Shown here: one piece after another, positions 9,777 to 63,674 of the stretch
Layout: every line of letters starts with the position of its first letter
How positions within the stretch are numbered: position 1 is the first letter of the stretch
From: an uncultured Methanomicrobiales archaeon
Lineage (GTDB): Archaea > Halobacteriota > Methanomicrobia > Methanomicrobiales > Methanospirillaceae
Direction: 5' to 3'
Length of the DNA stretch: 64,000 bases
Assembly: GCA_963758915.1 (NCBI GenBank)
Contig: CAVWXH010000007.1
Coordinates: 1 to 64,000 of the forward strand
The notes under the pieces: model-generated
What the model was told of the DNA's origin: nothing
Databases searched by the model: none
What the model saw: only the letters and a program-made list of their open reading frames with translations
Program-made: the position numbers and the translations under genes

Positions 9777-9964
9777 AATCTTGGATATTTTTGGTTGTAC
9801 CGAATCTATTGACGCTCCCGGGGCTCCGCCCCGCCGCTGTGGCGACCCCGGTTCGGATAGGGACTACACCCCCATACTCTGAAATTAATGAGCCTTCGCC
9901 GAAACCCTGCCCGATAAGTAAATCCACCCGGAAGTGGTTCAAATTGGCAGGATGTCAACAGAGC
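9777..9964 (-). repeat. Dispersed non-coding repeat, copy C (inner module)
   Basis: Reverse complement aligns with 35117-35255; ends in TGTCAACAGAGC (9953-9964), matching the module's terminal inverted repeat. Confidence 0.8.
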
Positions 9965-19428: not shown

Positions 19429-19690
19429 CGCTTCACAAACTGATCAGTTTTATTCCTGTGAGCTATTAAAATATCTGAAATCAGTCCGGGGTACCCGGTA
19501 TCTGGTTAACCAAAGATAATGGTGGCTGATACCTGCTGATTTTGGGCATTCATTACCGGTTGTCCGGTTTTTGTCCCCTCTTCTGCTTTGTGTGGATACT
19601 GATTATTTCGTTATTTCCAACTCCCGGAATAGTCTGCCGGCAGCTGTTTAAGGTACCATGGGTATAAGAGATATTTTCAAGGTAAACAGG

Positions 19691-21162: not shown

Positions 21163-21247
21163 GCGAGGGTAACCAAGCCAGGCCAACGGTGCTGGACTTA
21201 AGATCCAGTCTCGAAGGAGTTCATGGGTTCGAATCCCATCCCTCGCA
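21163..21247 (+). tRNA. tRNA-Leu(TAA)
   Basis: Acceptor GCGAGGG/CCCTCGC+A, anticodon arm CTGGA-CTTAAGA-TCCAG, long variable arm, GGTTCGAATCC T-loop; no encoded CCA. Confidence 0.96.
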
Positions 21248-26100: not shown

Positions 26101-29100
26101 ATCGTAACGATAACTGCAAGCGATGCAGCTGGGAACACCGTGACAGCACCACCCTTTATCGTGACCATTACCAATCCGAATCACCCTCCTATTCTCGACC
26201 CAATTGCGAGCCAGACTGTTACAAAGGGGCAGACCCTGATAATTACTGTATCAGCGAATGATTCAGATGGTGACGAACTCGTCTACACAGCTGATAACTT
26301 GCCTGCTGGAGCAACATTTGACTCAGTAACCAGAACTTTCTCCTGGACACCTGACGTTCAACAATTAGGCACCTATCATGTAGTATTTAGTGTTAAAGAT
26401 TCAATTGCCAGCGATAGCGAGACAGTAAAAATTACAATAAACGATCCAAATACCTATCCACTTGCGATTACAACAGACCAGTATGTAAATACGGTAAGTA
26501 CTGTTGATTTGTCGCATAGTCCGGCACTGATTACTATCTTGGGAAGCACTATCGGGCAACCGATGGATGTCGCAGTCAGTCCTGATTATAGTAGGGCTTT
26601 GGTGTCAGGCACCAATCAGGGAGAAGTAATAGTCTTTGACTTAACTCAGGCCCCGGCCCAGGAAATATCAAGGATAAGTGTAGGTGGAAGACCACAACAA
26701 ATTGCCATCACCCCTGATGGCAGAAAAGCGATTGTGGGCAATTCTCAAAATTATAACATAACAATACTGGATATATCTGATACGTCTCCGTCAATCCTCC
26801 AAGAAATAACCTTAAGTGGCAATCCGTATGGTGTAGGAATCACCAATGATGGGAACTACGCATTGGTATCAGTAATCACAAACCCCGGAAAACTATATGT
26901 AATTGATTTAAAAACAACTCCGGCCACTATCAAATATTCCCTTAATATTGCAAAATACAGTGAATTTATTGGAATGGATCCGAATGGAAAAACGGCAGTC
27001 GTGACTATGTTTGATATGACAGGGAACGTTACTATCGTTGATCTTACCACTGAACCGTTCACAGTAAAGGGTTATGTTTTGGTTGGGCACAACCCCGGTT
27101 CGGAACCCGCAATAACTCCAGATGGAAAATATGCCCTTGTAGGGAATTCGGATGATGATACCCTATCCGTGATTGATGTATCGTTGAGTTCGCCTGCGGT
27201 CGTGAAAACTCTATCAGTTGGGGATGATCCACGAGGTGTAGGCATTATTGATACCCAGAATGTTGCGCTTGTGGCGAACAGAGGTGTAGGAAATTCGCTA
27301 ACGAAAATTGATCTTAATACACTTACAGTCATTGGGACGATTACTGGATTAGCTTCACCAAATCATGTATCTGTGTATTATAAGGTAAAAGTGAATAATC
27401 CTCCAGCTCTAGCAATGATCGGAAATAAGACATTGAATGAAGGGGAGCAACTGAATTTCAACTTGTCAGCCATAGATGCAGATGGAGACCCCCTCACATA
27501 CAATGCAACCGGTGTTCCCAGATGGGCTACTTTCAATCCAGTTACAAAGACCTTCTCCGGAACGCCAGGATATTCCGATGCCGGTAGTTCAAGTGTTACA
27601 TTCTCAGTTACTGATGGTTCTCTCACCGACACGGAAGTCATTACGATTACCATAAACAATGTTAATCGGGCCCCGGTAGCAGCAGAACAGTCAGTAACAA
27701 CCGATGAGAATATTGCTGAAGCAATCACTCTCACTGCAACTGACGGTGATAACGACCCGATGACGTTCTCGGTTGTTACCGGTCCAGCCCACGGTACTCT
27801 GTCAGGAACCGCACCCGCTCTGACGTACACGCCAACTGCTAACTACAATGGTGCTGACTCGTTCACGTTCAAGGCTAATGACGGCACAGCAGATTCGAAT
27901 ACGGCAACGGTCAGCATTACGGTGAACCTGGTGAATGTAGCCCCGGTAGCAGCAGAACAGTCAGTAACAACCGATGAGAATATTGCTGAAGCAATCACTC
28001 TCACTGCAACTGACGGTGATAACGACCCGATGACGTTCTCGGTTGTTACCGGTCCAGCCCACGGTACTCTGTCAGGAACCGCACCCGCTCTGACGTACAC
28101 GCCAACTGCTAACTACAATGGTGCTGACTCGTTCACGTTCAAGGCTAATGACGGCACAGCAGATTCGAATACGGCAACGGTCAGCATTACGGTGAACCTG
28201 GTGAATATAGCCCCGGTAGCAGCAGAACAGTCAGTAACCACCGATGAGAATATCGCTACAGCAATCACTCTCACAGCAACTGACGCTGATAACGACCCGA
28301 TGACGTTCTCGGTTGTTACCGGTCCAGCCCACGGTACTCTCTCTGGAACCGCACCAGATCTGACCTACACGCCTACTGCTAACTACAATGGCGCTGACTC
28401 GTTCACGTTCAAGGCCAACGATAGTTTAGTAGATTCGAATACTGCAACGGTCAGCATTACGGTGAACCTGGTGAATGTAGCCCCGGTTGCAGCAGAACAG
28501 TCAGTAACCACCGATGAGAATATCGCTACAGCAATCACTCTCACTGCAACTGACGGTGATAACGACCCGATGACGTTCTCGGTTGTTACCGGTCCAGCCC
28601 ACGGTACTCTGTCAGGAACCGCACCCGCTCTGACGTACACGCCAACTGCTAACTACAATGGTGCTGACTCGTTCACGTTCAAGGCCAACGATAGTTTAGT
28701 AGATTCGAATACTGCAACGGTCAGTATTATTGTGAACCTGGTGAATGTAGCCCCGGTAGCAGCAGACCAGTCTGTAACCACCGATGAGAATATCGCTACA
28801 GCAATCACTCTCACAGCAACTGACGGTGATAACGACCCGATGACGTTCTCGGTTGTTACCGGTCCAGCTCACGGTACTCTGTCAGGAACCGCACCCGCTC
28901 TGACCTACACGCCAACTGCTAACTTCAATGGCGCTGACTCGTTCACGTTCAAGGCCAACGATGGTTTAGTAGATTCGAATACTGCAACGGTCAGTATTAT
29001 TGTGAACCTGGTGAATGTAGCCCCGGTAGCTGCAGAACAGTCTGTAACCACCGATGAGAATATCGCTACAGCAATCACTCTCACAGCAACTGACGGTGAT

Positions 29101-31393
29101 AACGACCCGATGACGTTCTCGGTTGTCACCGGTCCTGCTCACGGTACTCTGTCTGGAACCGCACCAGATCTGACCTACACGCCTACTGCTAACTACAATG
29201 GCGCTGACTCGTTCACGTTCAAGGCCAACGATAGTTTAGTAGATTCGAATATTGCAACGGTCAGTATTACGGTGAACCTGGTGAATGTAGCCCCGGTTGC
29301 TGCAGAACAGTCTGTAACCACCGATGAGAATATCGCTACACCAATCACTCTCACTGCAACTGACGGTGATAACGACCCGATGACGTTCTCGGTTGTTACC
29401 GGTCCTGCTCACGGTACTCTGTCCGGTATCGCACCAGATCTGACCTACACGCCTACTGCTAACTACAATGGCGCTGACTCGTTCACGTTCAAGGCCAACG
29501 ATAGTTTAGTAGATTCGAATATTGCAACGGTCAGCATTATTGTGAACCTGGTGAATGTAGCCCCGGTAGCAGCAGAACAGTCTGTAACCACCGATGAGAA
29601 TATCGCTACAGCAATCACTCTCACAGCAACTGACGGTGATAACGACCCGATGACGTTCTCGGTTGTTACCGGTCCAGCTCACGGTACTCTGTCCGGAACA
29701 GCACCAGATCTGACCTACACGCCTACTGCTAACTACAATGGTGCTGACTCGTTCACGTTCAAGGCCAACGATAGTTTAGTAGATTCGAATACTGCAACGG
29801 TCAGTATTATTGTGAACGTAAACCAGCCACCAAATATCGACGAGAACTCGGTCCTGTTTGATTCATCGATCACTGAAGGAGAGGCCCTGATCTTTATTGT
29901 CAGAGCGGAAGGAACAATACCGTTGGTCTATAATATCAGCCCATTAGACGGGGCTTCAATCAATCCCTCAACCGGAGAATTCATCTACACGGCCCCTGCG
30001 GGAAGTGCCGGGAGTTATGATATCACAATCACCGTGACTGATGCAAATACACTCACTGATTCTGTAACGATTCATATCACCGTTACCAGCGTCCCCATCC
30101 CGAACCAGCCACCAGTTCTATCCACAATCGGAAATAAAACCAAAAACGTTGGAGAATTGTTGACTTTCAGCATAAATGCTATAGATCCGGATGGAAACCC
30201 TCTAACCTACTCAGCATCAGGTCTACCTGCAAATGCCACATTCACTGGAACCACCTTCACTTGGACTCCTGCATTGAACCAGGTGGGGACACACACGGTT
30301 ACTTTCACTGTATCAGACGGCTCACTAAGCGATTCCGAAACAATCACCATAACTGTGACCAGTGTCATCAACCCGAACCTGCCTCCCGTCCTCGACCCAA
30401 TCGGGAACCAGACAGCAAGCCAGGGGCAACTCCTGACGTTCACAGTATCAGCCTTCAGATCCGGATAGTGCGACACTTACCTACTCGGCATCCGGGCTAC
30501 CAGCTGGCGCCACCTTCAACCCCTCAACAAAGACCTTCACCTGGACACCAGGCACCACTCAGTCAGGAAACTACCTCGTTAACTTCACAGTGTCGGATGG
30601 CTCTTTGACCGATTCAGAAGATGTGACAATAACCGTAACCAGCGTCAACAGCCCACCTGTCATTACTGCAATCGAATTCCCGGCAGACCCATACCAGAAA
30701 GGTTCAACTGTTTCGGTAACCGGATCATTCACCGATCCAGATACGACTGACACCCATACAGCCCAGTTCGCCTGGGGTGACGGGGCAACGTCAGCAGGAA
30801 TAGTTACTAAATCCGGAACAACAGGATCGGTTACCGGAAGTCATCTGTTCAATACCGTGGGTATTTACACCGTGAACCTGACCGTGACTGATTCAAAAGG
30901 GGCCGCAACAACCGCCTCATCAACAGATTTCGTGGTAATATATGATCCGGAGGGCCAGTTTGTAACCGGTGGAGGCGGCTACACCTCAGTTGCGGGATTA
31001 TACCTGCCAGATCCAACACTTACCGGAAAGGCGAGTTATGGCTTCAATGCAAAGTATAAGAAAGGGACGATGATCCCAGAGGGCAACACGGAATTCAAGA
31101 TTAAAGAGAAAAAAGGTGAAAAAGTCAAGTTCAAAGCAACCAGTTATGACTGGCTTGTGATAAGCGGAGCAAAAGCGACCTTCAGGGGATCAGGTACTAT
31201 CGATAAGGAAGGTAATTACGGATTCCTGATATCGTGTATTGACGGCACACTGGCAGGAACGGATGATAAGATCCGCGTGAGTATCTGGGACAAAGCCACA
31301 AACGCAGTCATTTATGACAACCAGCCGGGTGCCGGGATCAACGATGCCCCCACAATGAAAACAGAGGAAGGAAATATCAAAATCCATAAGTGA
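23129..31393 (+). CDS. Giant multidomain surface protein/adhesin (~2750 aa once three +1 frameshifts are corrected)
   Basis: ORFs 23129-25150, 25195-30468 and 30590-31393 join by removing one base each near 25123, 25154 and 30454. Domains: signal peptide, propeller-like repeats, He_PIG Ig, IPT/TIG, NosD beta-helix, YVTN propeller, 8 cadherin/Big_9 repeats, PKD (FAWGDG). Confidence 0.85.
27670..29829 (+). repeat. 8 tandem 270-bp (90 aa) near-identical Big_9/cadherin-like repeats
   Basis: Unit start GCCCCGGT(A/T)GC at 27670, 27940, 28210, 28480, 28750, 29020, 29290, 29560. Confidence 0.97.
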
Positions 31394-34939: not shown

Positions 34940-35313
34940 TGGCTGGTATGAAAAACTCCGGCAAAACAATCTGAAAGGCCACCTTTTTCATGCCCATCTA
35001 TGAGCCAAAAGGCTCATAGCACGCTCTGTAGAAACCCTGCATAATTAAAAAAAAGCAGATAGGTAAGACCAGGAGGGGGTTTCACCCCCCCTGTCCCACC
35101 CCCGATAAGATATTCATTGGCAGGTTTCAATTGGGACATTCAGGGGAATTTCAGAGATTAAAGAGATTATTCCTTATCCCAACCAGGGTCGCCAAAGCGG
35201 CGGGAGAGCCCTGGGAGGGTGACGAAATTTTGGAATTACCAAAAATCTCGTAAGATAGATTTGATAGGGTTTCAACAAAACCGGAATAACACTTTTTTGG
35301 CGGGTATCAGCCA
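34940..35313 (+). mobile_element. Composite MITE/REP-like element, copy A (outer flank + hairpin + inner TIR-bounded module)
   Basis: Outer ends TGGCTGGTA / TATCAGCCA; hairpin CTATGAGCC-AAAA-GGCTCATAG; inner inverted repeats 35023-35038 and 35266-35281 (13/16 match); homologues at 9777, 50845, 63293. Confidence 0.7.
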
Positions 35314-36240: not shown

Positions 36241-37620
36241 ATGTACGGGAACGGTGAGAAACGGGTCCTCCTGGTCGTGGCCTCACTTGCATCCTTTCTC
36301 GTCCCGTATACCGTCTCTTCGCTGAATGTGGCACTGCCGGCCATCAGTGCATCGTTTGGTATCGACGCCGTGATGCTGGGCTGGGTTACATCGGCATACC
36401 TGCTTACAGCCGCGATCTGCATCGTCCCGTTTGGCAGGCTTGCCGATATGTATGGGCGGAAGCGGTTTTTCATCCTGGGAAACGCCCTTTTCGCGTTGGG
36501 ATCGCTCCTTGCCGCCATCTCGTGGTCGGGCCCTGCCATTATCACGGCCCGGGTCATCCAGGCACTTGGGGGTGCGATGGTGTTCTCTACTTCGATTGCC
36601 ATCGTCACTTCTGTCTTCCCGCCCGGGGAACGGGGGCGGGCCATCGGGATTATCACGGCGACAGTGTACGCGGGACTCTCGCTTGGACCATTCATCGGCG
36701 GCGTCCTTACCTACAACATCGGGTGGCCCGCCATCTTCCTTGTCAATATCCCCCTCGCACTTCTCGTGATCGGGCTCACCGTTCTGTATATCCCCGGAGA
36801 ATGGACGGGAACGAACGAACGACGTTTCGATCTGGCCGGTGCAGCCCTGTACAGCCTGATGCTGTTCGGCTGCATCTACGGCCTTACCCAGCTGCCATCT
36901 CAATCCGGGATCTTCTGGGTGGTGTCCGGCCTGGTGATCCTCGCCCTGTTTGTCTGGTGGGAGCAACGGGTGCCGGCACCAATGGTCGAGATCTCGTTGT
37001 TCAGGAAGAGCCCTGTTTTTCTCTTCTCGAATATTGCAGCCCTGATCAACTATGCCATGGTCTTCGCCGTCGGGTTCCTCCTCAGCCTGTACCTGCAGTA
37101 TAACCGTGGTATAGACCCCCAGACCACGGGACTGATTCTCATCGCACAGCCGGTTGTCCAGATGATCGTCTCCCCGGTTGCAGGCCACCTCTCGGACAGG
37201 ATCGAGCCCCGGCTCCTGGCCACTGCCGGAATGGCGATTACCACGGCCGGCCTCGGCGTCCTGATGTTCCTCTCCCCGGGAACACCGCTCCTCGTCGTTA
37301 TCGGGGGGCAGGTTATTCTCGGCCTCGGGTATGGCCTGTTCTCATCGCCGAACACCAACGCCATCATGAGTTCCGTGAAGGTGCGGTACCTCGGTCTCGC
37401 TTCCAGCATGGTCTCCACGATGAGGGCCATCGGCCAGATGCTCAGCCTCGCCATTGCCATGCTCGTGTTTTCTGCGGTCATCGGGACGGTGCCTATCACA
37501 CCTGAGGTATATCCCGAACTTCAGCAAAGTGTCAATATCGCGTTTGCAATCTTTTTCGTCATCGGCCTGGTTGGTATAGCCGCATCGTATGCCCGGGGGA
37601 CGGGGCGTGAAGGCGTGTGA
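36241..37620 (+). CDS. MFS transporter (DHA2-like)
   Basis: GRLADMYGRKR, ERGRAIG, GPFIGG, SPNTNAIMSSV; many TM helices. Confidence 0.92.
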   Translation: MYGNGEKRVLLVVASLASFLVPYTVSSLNVALPAISASFGIDAVMLGWVTSAYLLTAAICIVPFGRLADMYGRKRFFILGNALFALGSLLAAISWSGPAIITARVIQALGGAMVFSTSIAIVTSVFPPGERGRAIGIITATVYAGLSLGPFIGGVLTYNIGWPAIFLVNIPLALLVIGLTVLYIPGEWTGTNERRFDLAGAALYSLMLFGCIYGLTQLPSQSGIFWVVSGLVILALFVWWEQRVPAPMVEISLFRKSPVFLFSNIAALINYAMVFAVGFLLSLYLQYNRGIDPQTTGLILIAQPVVQMIVSPVAGHLSDRIEPRLLATAGMAITTAGLGVLMFLSPGTPLLVVIGGQVILGLGYGLFSSPNTNAIMSSVKVRYLGLASSMVSTMRAIGQMLSLAIAMLVFSAVIGTVPITPEVYPELQQSVNIAFAIFFVIGLVGIAASYARGTGREGV

Positions 37621-47067: not shown

Positions 47068-47721
47068 TTATAATTCCCTGACCATGAGTGTGATCTCCCC
47101 GGGCAGGTCCTTAAAATAACAGGTCCCGTCAACGGAAAAATCCTGAAACGGAACCATAGCAGCCTCAAAAAAACCACACGCGGAAAATAACCCGCGTGAG
47201 GCAGGGGTGGTGCACTCTGCAAGGGCATACGAAAAGCCCCTGGTACGGGCGTGGTCCACCGCAGCCGTCAGCAAGGCTTTCGCAACCCCCTTCCCCTGGA
47301 ACCGGGGAACAGTCCCCACCTGGAAGAGGTGAAGGGATTCCCCTGCACCGACCGGGTAGTGTTCCCGGTAGCACTGCTCAAGCCTGCCAAGTATACAGGT
47401 AATCTCGTTAAAAATTGAAAACATATCGGCCATCAGGGGGTCACGGGACAACCAGTCAGTGGCAAGGTCACTGCTAAACGCGAAGCCTGCGAGGCCCCCG
47501 GATATGCTATCCCTCGCGATGAAACTCAGGGAATCCCTGGCGCACAGGGTTACATACACATATGCCGGAGGGAAAAAAATTTCCGGACCTGTCCTGCAAT
47601 AGCGGGTCATCGGCTCATGGTTGAGGAAAACATCCGCGTAACACCGGGTTGCTTCCCCGGCATCATTACCGGTAAGTGGTGTAATTACAAATGGAAAAAC
47701 AGGCCCGTTAACAGGACTCAC
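47068..47721 (-). CDS. GNAT family acetyltransferase
   Basis: VGTVPRFQGKGVAKALL acetyl-CoA motif; start uncertain. Confidence 0.8.
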   Translation of the reverse strand: MSPVNGPVFPFVITPLTGNDAGEATRCYADVFLNHEPMTRYCRTGPEIFFPPAYVYVTLCARDSLSFIARDSISGGLAGFAFSSDLATDWLSRDPLMADMFSIFNEITCILGRLEQCYREHYPVGAGESLHLFQVGTVPRFQGKGVAKALLTAAVDHARTRGFSYALAECTTPASRGLFSACGFFEAAMVPFQDFSVDGTCYFKDLPGEITLMVREL

Positions 47722-47928
47722 CGCTAAATTACATGCCTGTTTACGATATTTATCTTTCCATACCCCGGGTTTGGATGGAAATGGTGACGACCTGGTATTC
47801 CCATGAAGCCGGAGCCCGCGGATAACTGAATCGTACCCTATAAGTACAACGCCGTGCAACAGGATGGATCATGGGCAGGGGTACTCACACCGGTGGGTAT
47901 GACAGGCCTGTTACAACCCGGGTGGACG

Positions 47929-48363
47929 ATGACAGGGATTTACCAGAAGATTGTAATTGCAACCGACGGATCGGAAAGAAACCTGAGTGCGGTAATTGAG
48001 GGGGTGATGATCGCCCGTGTTTCCGGGGCAAAACTCCAGGTGGTCTATGTAATTGATACAAAAGCCCTCACTACGGGTGTCATCGAGGAGTCCTATGCCG
48101 GCATGTATGACAGCCTTCACGGGGAGGGGGAACAGGCACTTGAACAGGCAAAAGAGCTGGCAGGTGACCTCGATGCGGATACGTTCCTCCTTACCGGGAA
48201 ACCAGCAACAGAGATCACCCGCTTTGTAAAGGAACAGGGGGCAGACCTGCTGGTTGTCGGAACGCAGGGGAAAAGCGGCCTTGGAAAACTCATTCTCGGG
48301 AGTGTAGCCGAAACGATCATCCGGACTGCCCCCTGCTCCGTACTGGTGGTAAGGAAGTCCTAA
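47929..48363 (+). CDS. Universal stress protein
   Basis: IVIATDGS, DLLVVGTQGKSG..LILGSVAE..PCSVLVV. Confidence 0.93.
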   Translation: MTGIYQKIVIATDGSERNLSAVIEGVMIARVSGAKLQVVYVIDTKALTTGVIEESYAGMYDSLHGEGEQALEQAKELAGDLDADTFLLTGKPATEITRFVKEQGADLLVVGTQGKSGLGKLILGSVAETIIRTAPCSVLVVRKS

Positions 48364-50825: not shown

Positions 50826-50844
50826 AAGCTGGACGATCAAAGAA

Positions 50845-50922
50845 AATCTCTGAAATTTCAGGTGAACCCTGCCAACAGAATTTCTTCCAGGGAGTGGAGC
50901 AGGGAGGGGTGAAACCACCTCC
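50845..50922 (-). repeat. Dispersed non-coding repeat, copy D (partial inner module)
   Basis: Reverse complement GGAGGTGGTTTCACCCCT...TTGGCAGGGTT...AATTTCAGAGATT aligns with 35072-35159. Confidence 0.75.
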
Positions 50923-51042
50923 TTTCTACGCGTCTGGTGCTTTTTTTGCCGGCACGAAGGATGCCGACAGAAATTTTCTGCAAAAACTGATTGATATTCT
51001 GATTGATAGTTCTATCGTTTCCAAATGGGAGCTTAAGAGTAG

Positions 51043-54244: not shown

Positions 54245-54561
54245 TTCATCCTCTTACCCGAATATGAGATTTTTTCCGGGAATAAAGTTGTTACATGCCG
54301 CCGGGTGGCCATGGATGAAGTGCTATAAAATGCCGCAAATTGGAATGACCATCAAAAAAATATGAAGGATTTCCCATGAAAATATCAAAACGGACCCCAA
54401 TATATAGAATTTTGAACAAGTTATTTTCATAAACCGGGTGTGAACTTCCCGTTCATGAGTGTTTCAACAAACGCACTATCTGCCCTTGGCACATGGGGGA
54501 GTATGAAAAATACGGGCATTCCGATGGTTGCGAGGAATGTTACATACCAGCCAAAAATCTA

Positions 54562-59110: not shown

Positions 59111-59176
59111 ATAAAAAAAAACGGCTGGTATGAAAAAAGCATGAAATAAATAAGAAAATTGGTTTATACCAACAGT

Positions 59177-63292: not shown

Positions 63293-63454
63293 TGGCTGAT
63301 ATGAAAAACTCAGGTTAAACAATCCGGAAGCCACCTTTTTTTATGTCTATCTATGAGCCAGGGGCCCATAGCATGCTTTGTTGAAATGCTCTGAAACGAT
63401 CTTACATTTTTTTTGTATTCCGAAATGTACCAACGCTCCCGGGGCTCCGCCCCG
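63293..63454 (+). repeat. Dispersed non-coding repeat, copy B (outer flank + hairpin + inverted inner module end)
   Basis: 63293-63386 aligns with 34940-35034; 63375-63454 aligns with the reverse complement of 35200-35281. Confidence 0.85.
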
Positions 63455-63674
63455 GAAAACGTGGGAAGATCTGGGAATACCCTGATGTCCATGATAGATT
63501 ATAGAGCATATCAATAAAACAGATAGTAAGGCCATTTTTTCCTCTCCCTGCCCTTTATAGTCCTGATACGCCCTGTTTCAGATTTGGAGTTATTTCATCA
63601 GATATTCCCTCATCCAGGGACTCCTGCCTGCGGGAATTTATTTTCAATGCACAAAACGTGACCACTACCCCGGT

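Follow-up and report, generated by a model that had tools for sequence, protein, structure and literature searches.

Small hairpin modules that lie in mosaic arrays, mostly downstream of genes and with no target duplication of their own, are known from the REP/BIME elements with their RAYT enzymes and from the PATEs of the IS200/IS605 family. Repeats can also serve as targets, as with IS1397 and ISKpn1, which insert into REP loops, and with the group II intron RmInt1, which inserts into ISRm2011-2. Archaeal MITEs have, to our knowledge, been little studied. For Halobacterium salinarum, one account describes the MITEHsal elements and ISH1, with an 8-bp target duplication (AGCCGCCA) at one copy (PMC7002104). 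For IS30 and IS911, integration next to an inverted repeat is described as orientation-specific and reversible and as generating new junctions of abutted ends (PMC9333248). Our literature search returned no description of a Methanoregula MITE, of the present family or of a small element specific for transposon tips.

The locus analysed here lies in a window of 64,000 nucleotides (contig C7, positions 1–64000) of a draft methanogen genome (G000; 2,376,164 bases in 18 contigs, ∼50% G+C, 94% complete). It carries members of what is probably a layered non-coding mobile family, in which an inner module (I) is a MITE and an outer module (O) is a separate, later-arriving double-hairpin element at the tips of the repeats. 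Iterated nhmmer searches of all contigs (E ≤ 1e-3) returned 196 matches to I (∼260 bp; 111 near full length) and 57 to O, more than expected by chance; a third module, X (∼100 nt), has 74 matches and a fourth, Y, ∼21 from one round of searching. The matches to O, I and X fall into 220 clusters, which occupy 53,322 bases and account for 2.24% of the genome.

In copy A the O profile matches positions 34940–35033 (plus strand), and the O body (34942–35022) is an 81-nt double hairpin set between a G at 34941 and the GCT of the left repeat of a MITE, the body of which occupies 35023–35282 on the same strand (I profile match 35018–35294). The left repeat, GCTCTGTAGAAACCC, has its first G at 34941, and the right repeat, GGGTTTCAACAAAACC, lies at 35267–35282, in agreement with an earlier note on the window, which had described a 16-mer that opens a module closed by its inverted copy. 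The flanks of copy A, GCTTTTCT and GGAATAAC, differ, with no matching target duplication. As also claimed in that note, copy A shares its outer module with a copy B; the two are 80% identical without gaps over 71 nt (80.8% over 99 nt by blastn) and both match the O profile. In copy B the O is diverged (63294–63374, plus strand; profile match 63294–63385, score 78.3) and its fold is weak (z −0.5). The sequence behind it had been read as the whole inner module flipped. The opposite end of I does stand reversed behind the 16-mer; the segment (63375–63528, plus strand) is nevertheless a foldback derivative rather than a whole flipped module, with the right end of I reversed (match 63368–63454, minus strand, profile positions 187–274) and then forward (63440–63528, plus strand, profile positions 187–275). 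Foldbacks of two inverted I right ends (∼160 nt) occur in three places, at 63294–63528 of the window and at 47673–47950 and 403646–403888 of contig C16, and may have arisen as by-products when ends were joined aberrantly.

The third O of the window (54462–54553, minus strand; profile score 52.7) had been noted as a possible end fragment at 54461; it is a full O, with an X directly behind it, within the terminal repeat (54367–54467, minus strand; score 85.2; architecture X< O<). The lone inner pieces that had been recognised at 9777 and 50845 are partial I copies, both on the minus strand, at 9777–9920 (profile positions 97–243) and 50844–50971 (profile positions 9–146). For a supposed end fragment at 59123, a direct reading shows 15 nt in common with the outer end of O (GGCTGGTATGAAAAA; 59123–59137, plus strand), a stretch that has no profile match and is too short to call, and another at 19521 has no profile match and is just GGCTGATA, a chance occurrence. 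The gene order around the orthologous site of copy A is altered in 12 congeners and no clean empty site was readable there; in that region a sister species (G006) is without the neighbouring gene and another congener (G011) has a ferritin-like gene instead. Elsewhere in the window, a 270-nt unit is repeated eight times in tandem (27646–29835; copies 83–96% alike to the first, with a related 33-mer at 37151) and is probably a repeated domain of a large gene. A tRNA match at 21163–21247, the only match of the window to Rfam at gathering score, spans 85 nt against the 71 positions of the model (53.3 bits), and an intron or a long variable arm may account for the excess.

Module I is a MITE of an IS5-family insertion sequence with identical ends. 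It has terminal inverted repeats of 16–20 bp (GGCTYTGTWGAAA), the consensus ends of which, GGCTTTGTTGAAACCC and GGxTTTCAACAGAGCC, are seen in individual copies too. Among the 55 copies with both repeats detectable, a target duplication with a fixed length of 8 bp is perfect in 13 and has one mismatch in five, compared with 0 of 55 at ≤1 mismatch in a shifted control, and clean empty sites are found in sister species. The ends of I are those of an autonomous insertion sequence on contig C6 (46099–47110; 1,012 bp), which contains an open frame of 300 amino acids. This frame (C6, 46211–47110) is the single intact transposase gene found in a whole-genome search with Pfam DDE_Tnp_1, matches to which were confined to contigs C6 and C3, in line with the earlier statement that the window holds no transposase. 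It matches PF01609 (DDE_Tnp_1; E 7e-20) and the NCBIfam model NF033579, ‘IS5 family transposase’ (204.7 bits; cut-off 140). The earlier recognition of IS903-like (IS5 family) ends was therefore right as to the family and wrong as to the group, since the IS903 group needs a 9-bp duplication and here the duplication is 8 bp, the ninth base being different. Membership of the ISL3 family, an idea from the 8-bp duplication and the GGCTCT ends, was rejected with no match to PF01610. The ISH1 group of the IS5 family comprises, in the ISfinder table, elements of ∼0.9–1.15 kb with an 8-bp duplication. With its DDE_Tnp_1 transposase, its 1,012 bp (∼1,007 bp in its relatives) and its 8-bp duplication, the C6 element fits the ISH1 type, an assignment made by size and duplication length.

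The closest relatives of the C6 element are in Methanoregula or Methanoregulaceae records. Eighty related loci in public genomes measure ∼1,007 bp with ends GGCTCTGTAGAAA, and exact 8-bp duplications flank at least 14 of the 25 that were read. One full-length relative, in a public Methanoregulaceae record (L043, 1268–2379; 1,112 bp), has an X within its left terminal repeat, which indicates that X rides in autonomous copies as well. Broken relatives of the IS5 transposase (34–49% identity) lie on contig C3 at 83488–84360, with halves on opposite strands and adjoining an I copy at 83216, and at 326867–327329. A 55-nt piece of IS interior on contig C10 (117513–117566; 91% identity to positions 571–625 of the O+IS query) is separated by ∼40 nt from an I copy (117303–117471) and is a possible vestige connecting the insertion sequence and the MITE. 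Pairs of repeat motifs 0.7–3 kb apart were considered as further insertion sequences, and the C6 copy alone proved real; at two mismatches the motif is too common by chance to be informative (421 sites, compared with ∼211 in shuffled sequence).

These features resemble those of ISH1-type IS5 members and archaeal MITEs: a DDE_Tnp_1/IS5 transposase in an element of ∼1 kb with short ends starting in GGC, an 8-bp duplication, and non-coding derivatives that share only the ends (PMC7002104). Unlike ISH1 and MITEHsal, the present family resides in a methanogen, its draft genome holds ∼200 MITE matches against one intact insertion sequence in 2.4 Mb, and its ends are associated with O, X and Y.

The O body, measured between the G and GCT, is 78–83 nt long in 41 of 42 copies, and that of copy A, as single-stranded DNA, forms two hairpins that leave only the terminal 3 nt on either side uncovered (−16 kcal/mol, z −4.9). 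The outer end of O, GGCTGGTATGAAAAAC, is similar to the terminal repeat, and hairpin 2, CTATGAGCC-loop-GGCTCATAG, is built like a pair of abutted ends. O is confined to the extreme tip of such a repeat (G^GCT, 3 nt ambiguous), with hairpin 2 facing the repeat: the motif GCTYTGTWGAA directly follows 45 of the 53 copies that extend far enough, and I is on the hairpin-2 side in all 39 O copies that have I within 220 nt. Either end of an I copy or of a complete insertion sequence can bear O, which on C6 stands in front of the insertion sequence. The earlier note had proposed a MITE that targets a hairpin. It was right about the inner module, a MITE with inverted ends, and about the nesting, but the targeting is reversed, O landing on the tip of the MITE or insertion sequence. 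Outer and inner modules are not always colinear, and I directly joined to O has the same orientation in 13 cases and the opposite one in 12, both being found behind O because the ends of I are equivalent. The other contexts are O-X-I (9), O-X (4), O-gap-I (1) and lone O matches (18), several of which are followed by a short remnant ending in the right repeat. One O-X-I composite with an identical left flank is present on both contig C12 (22537–22977) and contig C13 (3731–4300), reflecting either a segmental duplication or assembly redundancy. Beyond G000, all nine loci read in a congener and in members of a further genus and a further family of the order have O beside the same repeat; the ends and second hairpin of O are conserved at these loci and the loop of the first hairpin is divergent. 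In using another repeated element as a specific landing site, O is like IS1397, ISKpn1 and RmInt1, but those encode their own enzyme whereas O is 81 nt and non-coding.

Two hairpins over nearly the whole length and an exact, site- and orientation-specific insertion without an 8-bp duplication of its own would also be expected if O, X and Y were REP/BIME-like or IS200/IS605-PATE-like hairpins, transposed in single-stranded form by a Y1 (HUH) enzyme acting in trans. The behaviour of Y points the same way: its site within O or X is a fixed motif, TTTTCATGG, which the 3′ end of Y restores; a 170-nt pair of Y stands in one O of G000, at CATTT^TCATGG, and the corresponding O of G006 is intact. We nevertheless regard this explanation as improbable. 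A search for PF01797 in the 94%-complete genome gave no Y1 match at E ≤ 0.1, and the REP/BIME-like system suggested in the earlier note was abandoned for want of such a REP/RAYT-type enzyme. A TnpB partner was likewise rejected, the sole match of the Cas12f/TnpB-type zinc ribbon (PF07282, 26.4 bits) being a transcription factor B-like protein. Moreover, in three families of the order the specificity of O is towards the adjoining IS5-type repeat and, in contrast to REP/BIME elements and PATEs, O is anchored at a DDE-type transposon end and not scattered alone.

The view of O as a separate, later arrival comes from comparison of orthologous sites. The species tree, ((G000,G006),G010), has support of 1.0 from a 7-kb syntenic block. 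At C9:96398, G000 has O+I, the same 8-bp duplications (CATATCTT and CATATCCT) enclose I without O in G010, and G006 has a remnant of the repeat, also without O, against the same flank; the orthologous I copies are only 84% alike, no closer than paralogs (86–91%). At a second locus (L140, on contig C4 of G006), O is present in G006 only, where its gain was accompanied by the loss of 21 nt of flank, whereas I without O occupies the site in G000 and the site in G010 is empty. These two gains, one in each of the two species, are the only ones polarised by an outgroup, and both took place at resident copies of I, so that O arrived later than I. For copy A, one contig from metagenome run X1, with no mismatch over 543 nt of the left flank, joins position 34941 to 35023; it omits exactly the 81-nt O and restores GGCTCTGTAGAAA (a single contig, which extends 30 nt past the joint and is aligned there at 90% likeness), and a contig of run X2 has the O; the raw DNA reads of run X22 do not reach this locus. 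O can be present or absent as an exact unit. The unit of copy A is bounded by a 3-nt repeat, GCT, and loss by slippage could give the X1 allele, while a gain would need another explanation.

The identity of O bodies is also hardly related to that of the adjacent I copies (Spearman 0.11 for 253 non-independent pairs from 23 composites), with O bodies 97.5–100% alike on I copies only 60–89% alike, in either orientation and with or without X. In the same test the identity of X tracks that of I (Spearman 0.38, p 1.6e-23), as expected if X is copied along with I. Some duplicated copies of I measure 346–371 bp with the duplication outside X, which places X inside the element, and one orthologous I has X in G000 and none in G006. 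From these sequence comparisons, O appears to move on its own.

It is slightly less probable still than the involvement of Y1 that O is a longer alternative left end of the insertion sequence and MITE, the composite always being one moving piece and O never moving alone. The likeness of the outer end of O to the repeat would suit such an end, as would the 8-bp duplications around O+I, O+X+I and O+IS units (exact in 7 of 52, one mismatch in 6 of 53). Whole composites are, in addition, missing at clean empty sites of sister species, including O+IS (1,093 bp), which is one gain compared with a clean empty site in G006, where a single TAAATGAC stands. Since O arrives after the host element, these duplications would be the host element's own; they fit O being carried along equally well. 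Against an alternative end stand the gains of O on I copies that were already resident, the exact 81-nt presence or absence at copy A, the near-identical O bodies on very different I copies in both orientations, and the observation that O adjoins none of the 80 related insertion sequence loci in other genomes. Copies capped by O seem not to be amplifying further as units.

The distribution of the family relative to genes, with gaps defined by crude ORF calls, is strongly skewed. Of the 220 clusters, 206 lie between two predicted genes, and 107 of these 206 are in convergent gaps, which make up 371 of the 1,651 intergenic regions overall (chi-square p 4e-23); the family occupies 107 of the 371 convergent gaps. 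The earlier note had remarked that most copies lie between convergent genes. The genome-wide excess there fits selection against insertion near promoters. I is mobilised in trans by its partner insertion sequence, enters in either orientation and persists chiefly downstream of genes. The same placement, together with a consensus fold of I at −92 kcal/mol, could be taken to mean that the elements are retained for a role as RNA or, between convergent genes, in terminating transcription, which we consider very unlikely. No orientation bias relative to neighbouring genes was detected (I 38:28, O 8:6, X 13:16), RNAalifold on the 111 I copies gave no consensus structure, and double changes at pairs of the consensus fold are not in excess (202, compared with 177–249 in slid controls). 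Rfam 15, to which the earlier note had looked for an RNA family, has no match on the element at gathering or permissive thresholds (best 17 bits, cut-off 50), and presence or absence differs among close relatives. Contigs of RNA run X20 have 5–6 mismatches on O and none reaches past ∼35160 on I, and they are uninformative on expression.

The orientation of I differs between species at two orthologous sites. At C6:52688, I is forward in G000 and G010 and reversed in G006, where X and Y lie at the opposite end, and G011 is empty; at the second site, which has O in G006, I is forward in G006 and reversed in G000 (truncated) and G010, its right-end subtype being identical in all three. These opposite orientations would reflect either a target used twice or an in-place flip of the body over evolutionary time. 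On contig C16, ∼730 nt in G000 (310170–310984; L108, 5171–5985) are replaced by ∼83 nt in G006; the insert has an apparent small response-regulator-like ORF on the reverse strand and no O, I or X module. An invertible cassette under a site-specific recombinase, as the earlier note had entertained, or a MITE homing to the O hairpin would accommodate the two flipped sites and the 13:12 orientations behind O, but either is highly doubtful given that the latter follow from equivalent ends, that 101 I clusters have no O, that I is there before O at the polarised sites, that I has no gene or recognisable switchable feature and that its 8-bp duplications are typical of transposition.

Returning to O as a separate element at the repeat tips, its movement would ride on the cleavage that the IS transposase itself performs there. 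The IS5 transposase is the only enzyme known to act at the exact landing spot of O, and among the mechanisms considered we give this route roughly even chances. The outer end of O would mimic the repeat and hairpin 2 would resemble two abutted ends, and the same cleave-and-rejoin chemistry would permit flipped re-ligation of I. Relatives of the transposase are found in 4 of the 12 other species of the genus and none was found in G006 (83% complete), which also gained O; O+I DNA is found in all 12 of these species and in 5 of 28 genomes outside the genus. The nearest known process to the proposed movement of O is the integration of IS30 next to an inverted repeat. IS30 and IS911 share with O the insertion at the tip of a resident repeat and the strict orientation, and hairpin 2 recalls their form of two abutted ends; there, however, the incomer is the IS30 element itself, by way of a circle or dimer junction whose spacer is 2 bp (PMC9333248), whereas here it is an 81-nt non-coding hairpin and the family is IS5. 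Also unlike IS30, no circle or junction intermediate was seen for O, and its junction with the repeat (O ... CAC/GCT ...) is no simple abutted pair.

More tentatively, and on present evidence less likely to be right than wrong, O could be an ultra-small non-coding hyperparasite that homes solely to IS5-type repeat tips. Its exact 81-nt units would move in and out through the cuts of the host transposase (cut-and-ligate with a 3-nt GCT overlap), O would cap and immobilise its host by pushing the true repeat inward, and flipped re-ligation of the MITE would explain the differences in orientation between orthologous sites.

A single family thus fills 2.2% of a 2.4-Mb methanogen genome. Its O, I, X and Y modules break assemblies and can mislead the annotation of repeats and small RNAs in the Methanomicrobiales. 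If O does use and then block the ends of its host transposon, it would act as a natural check on the spread of transposons and, if this is true, a compact, sequence-addressed insertion system.
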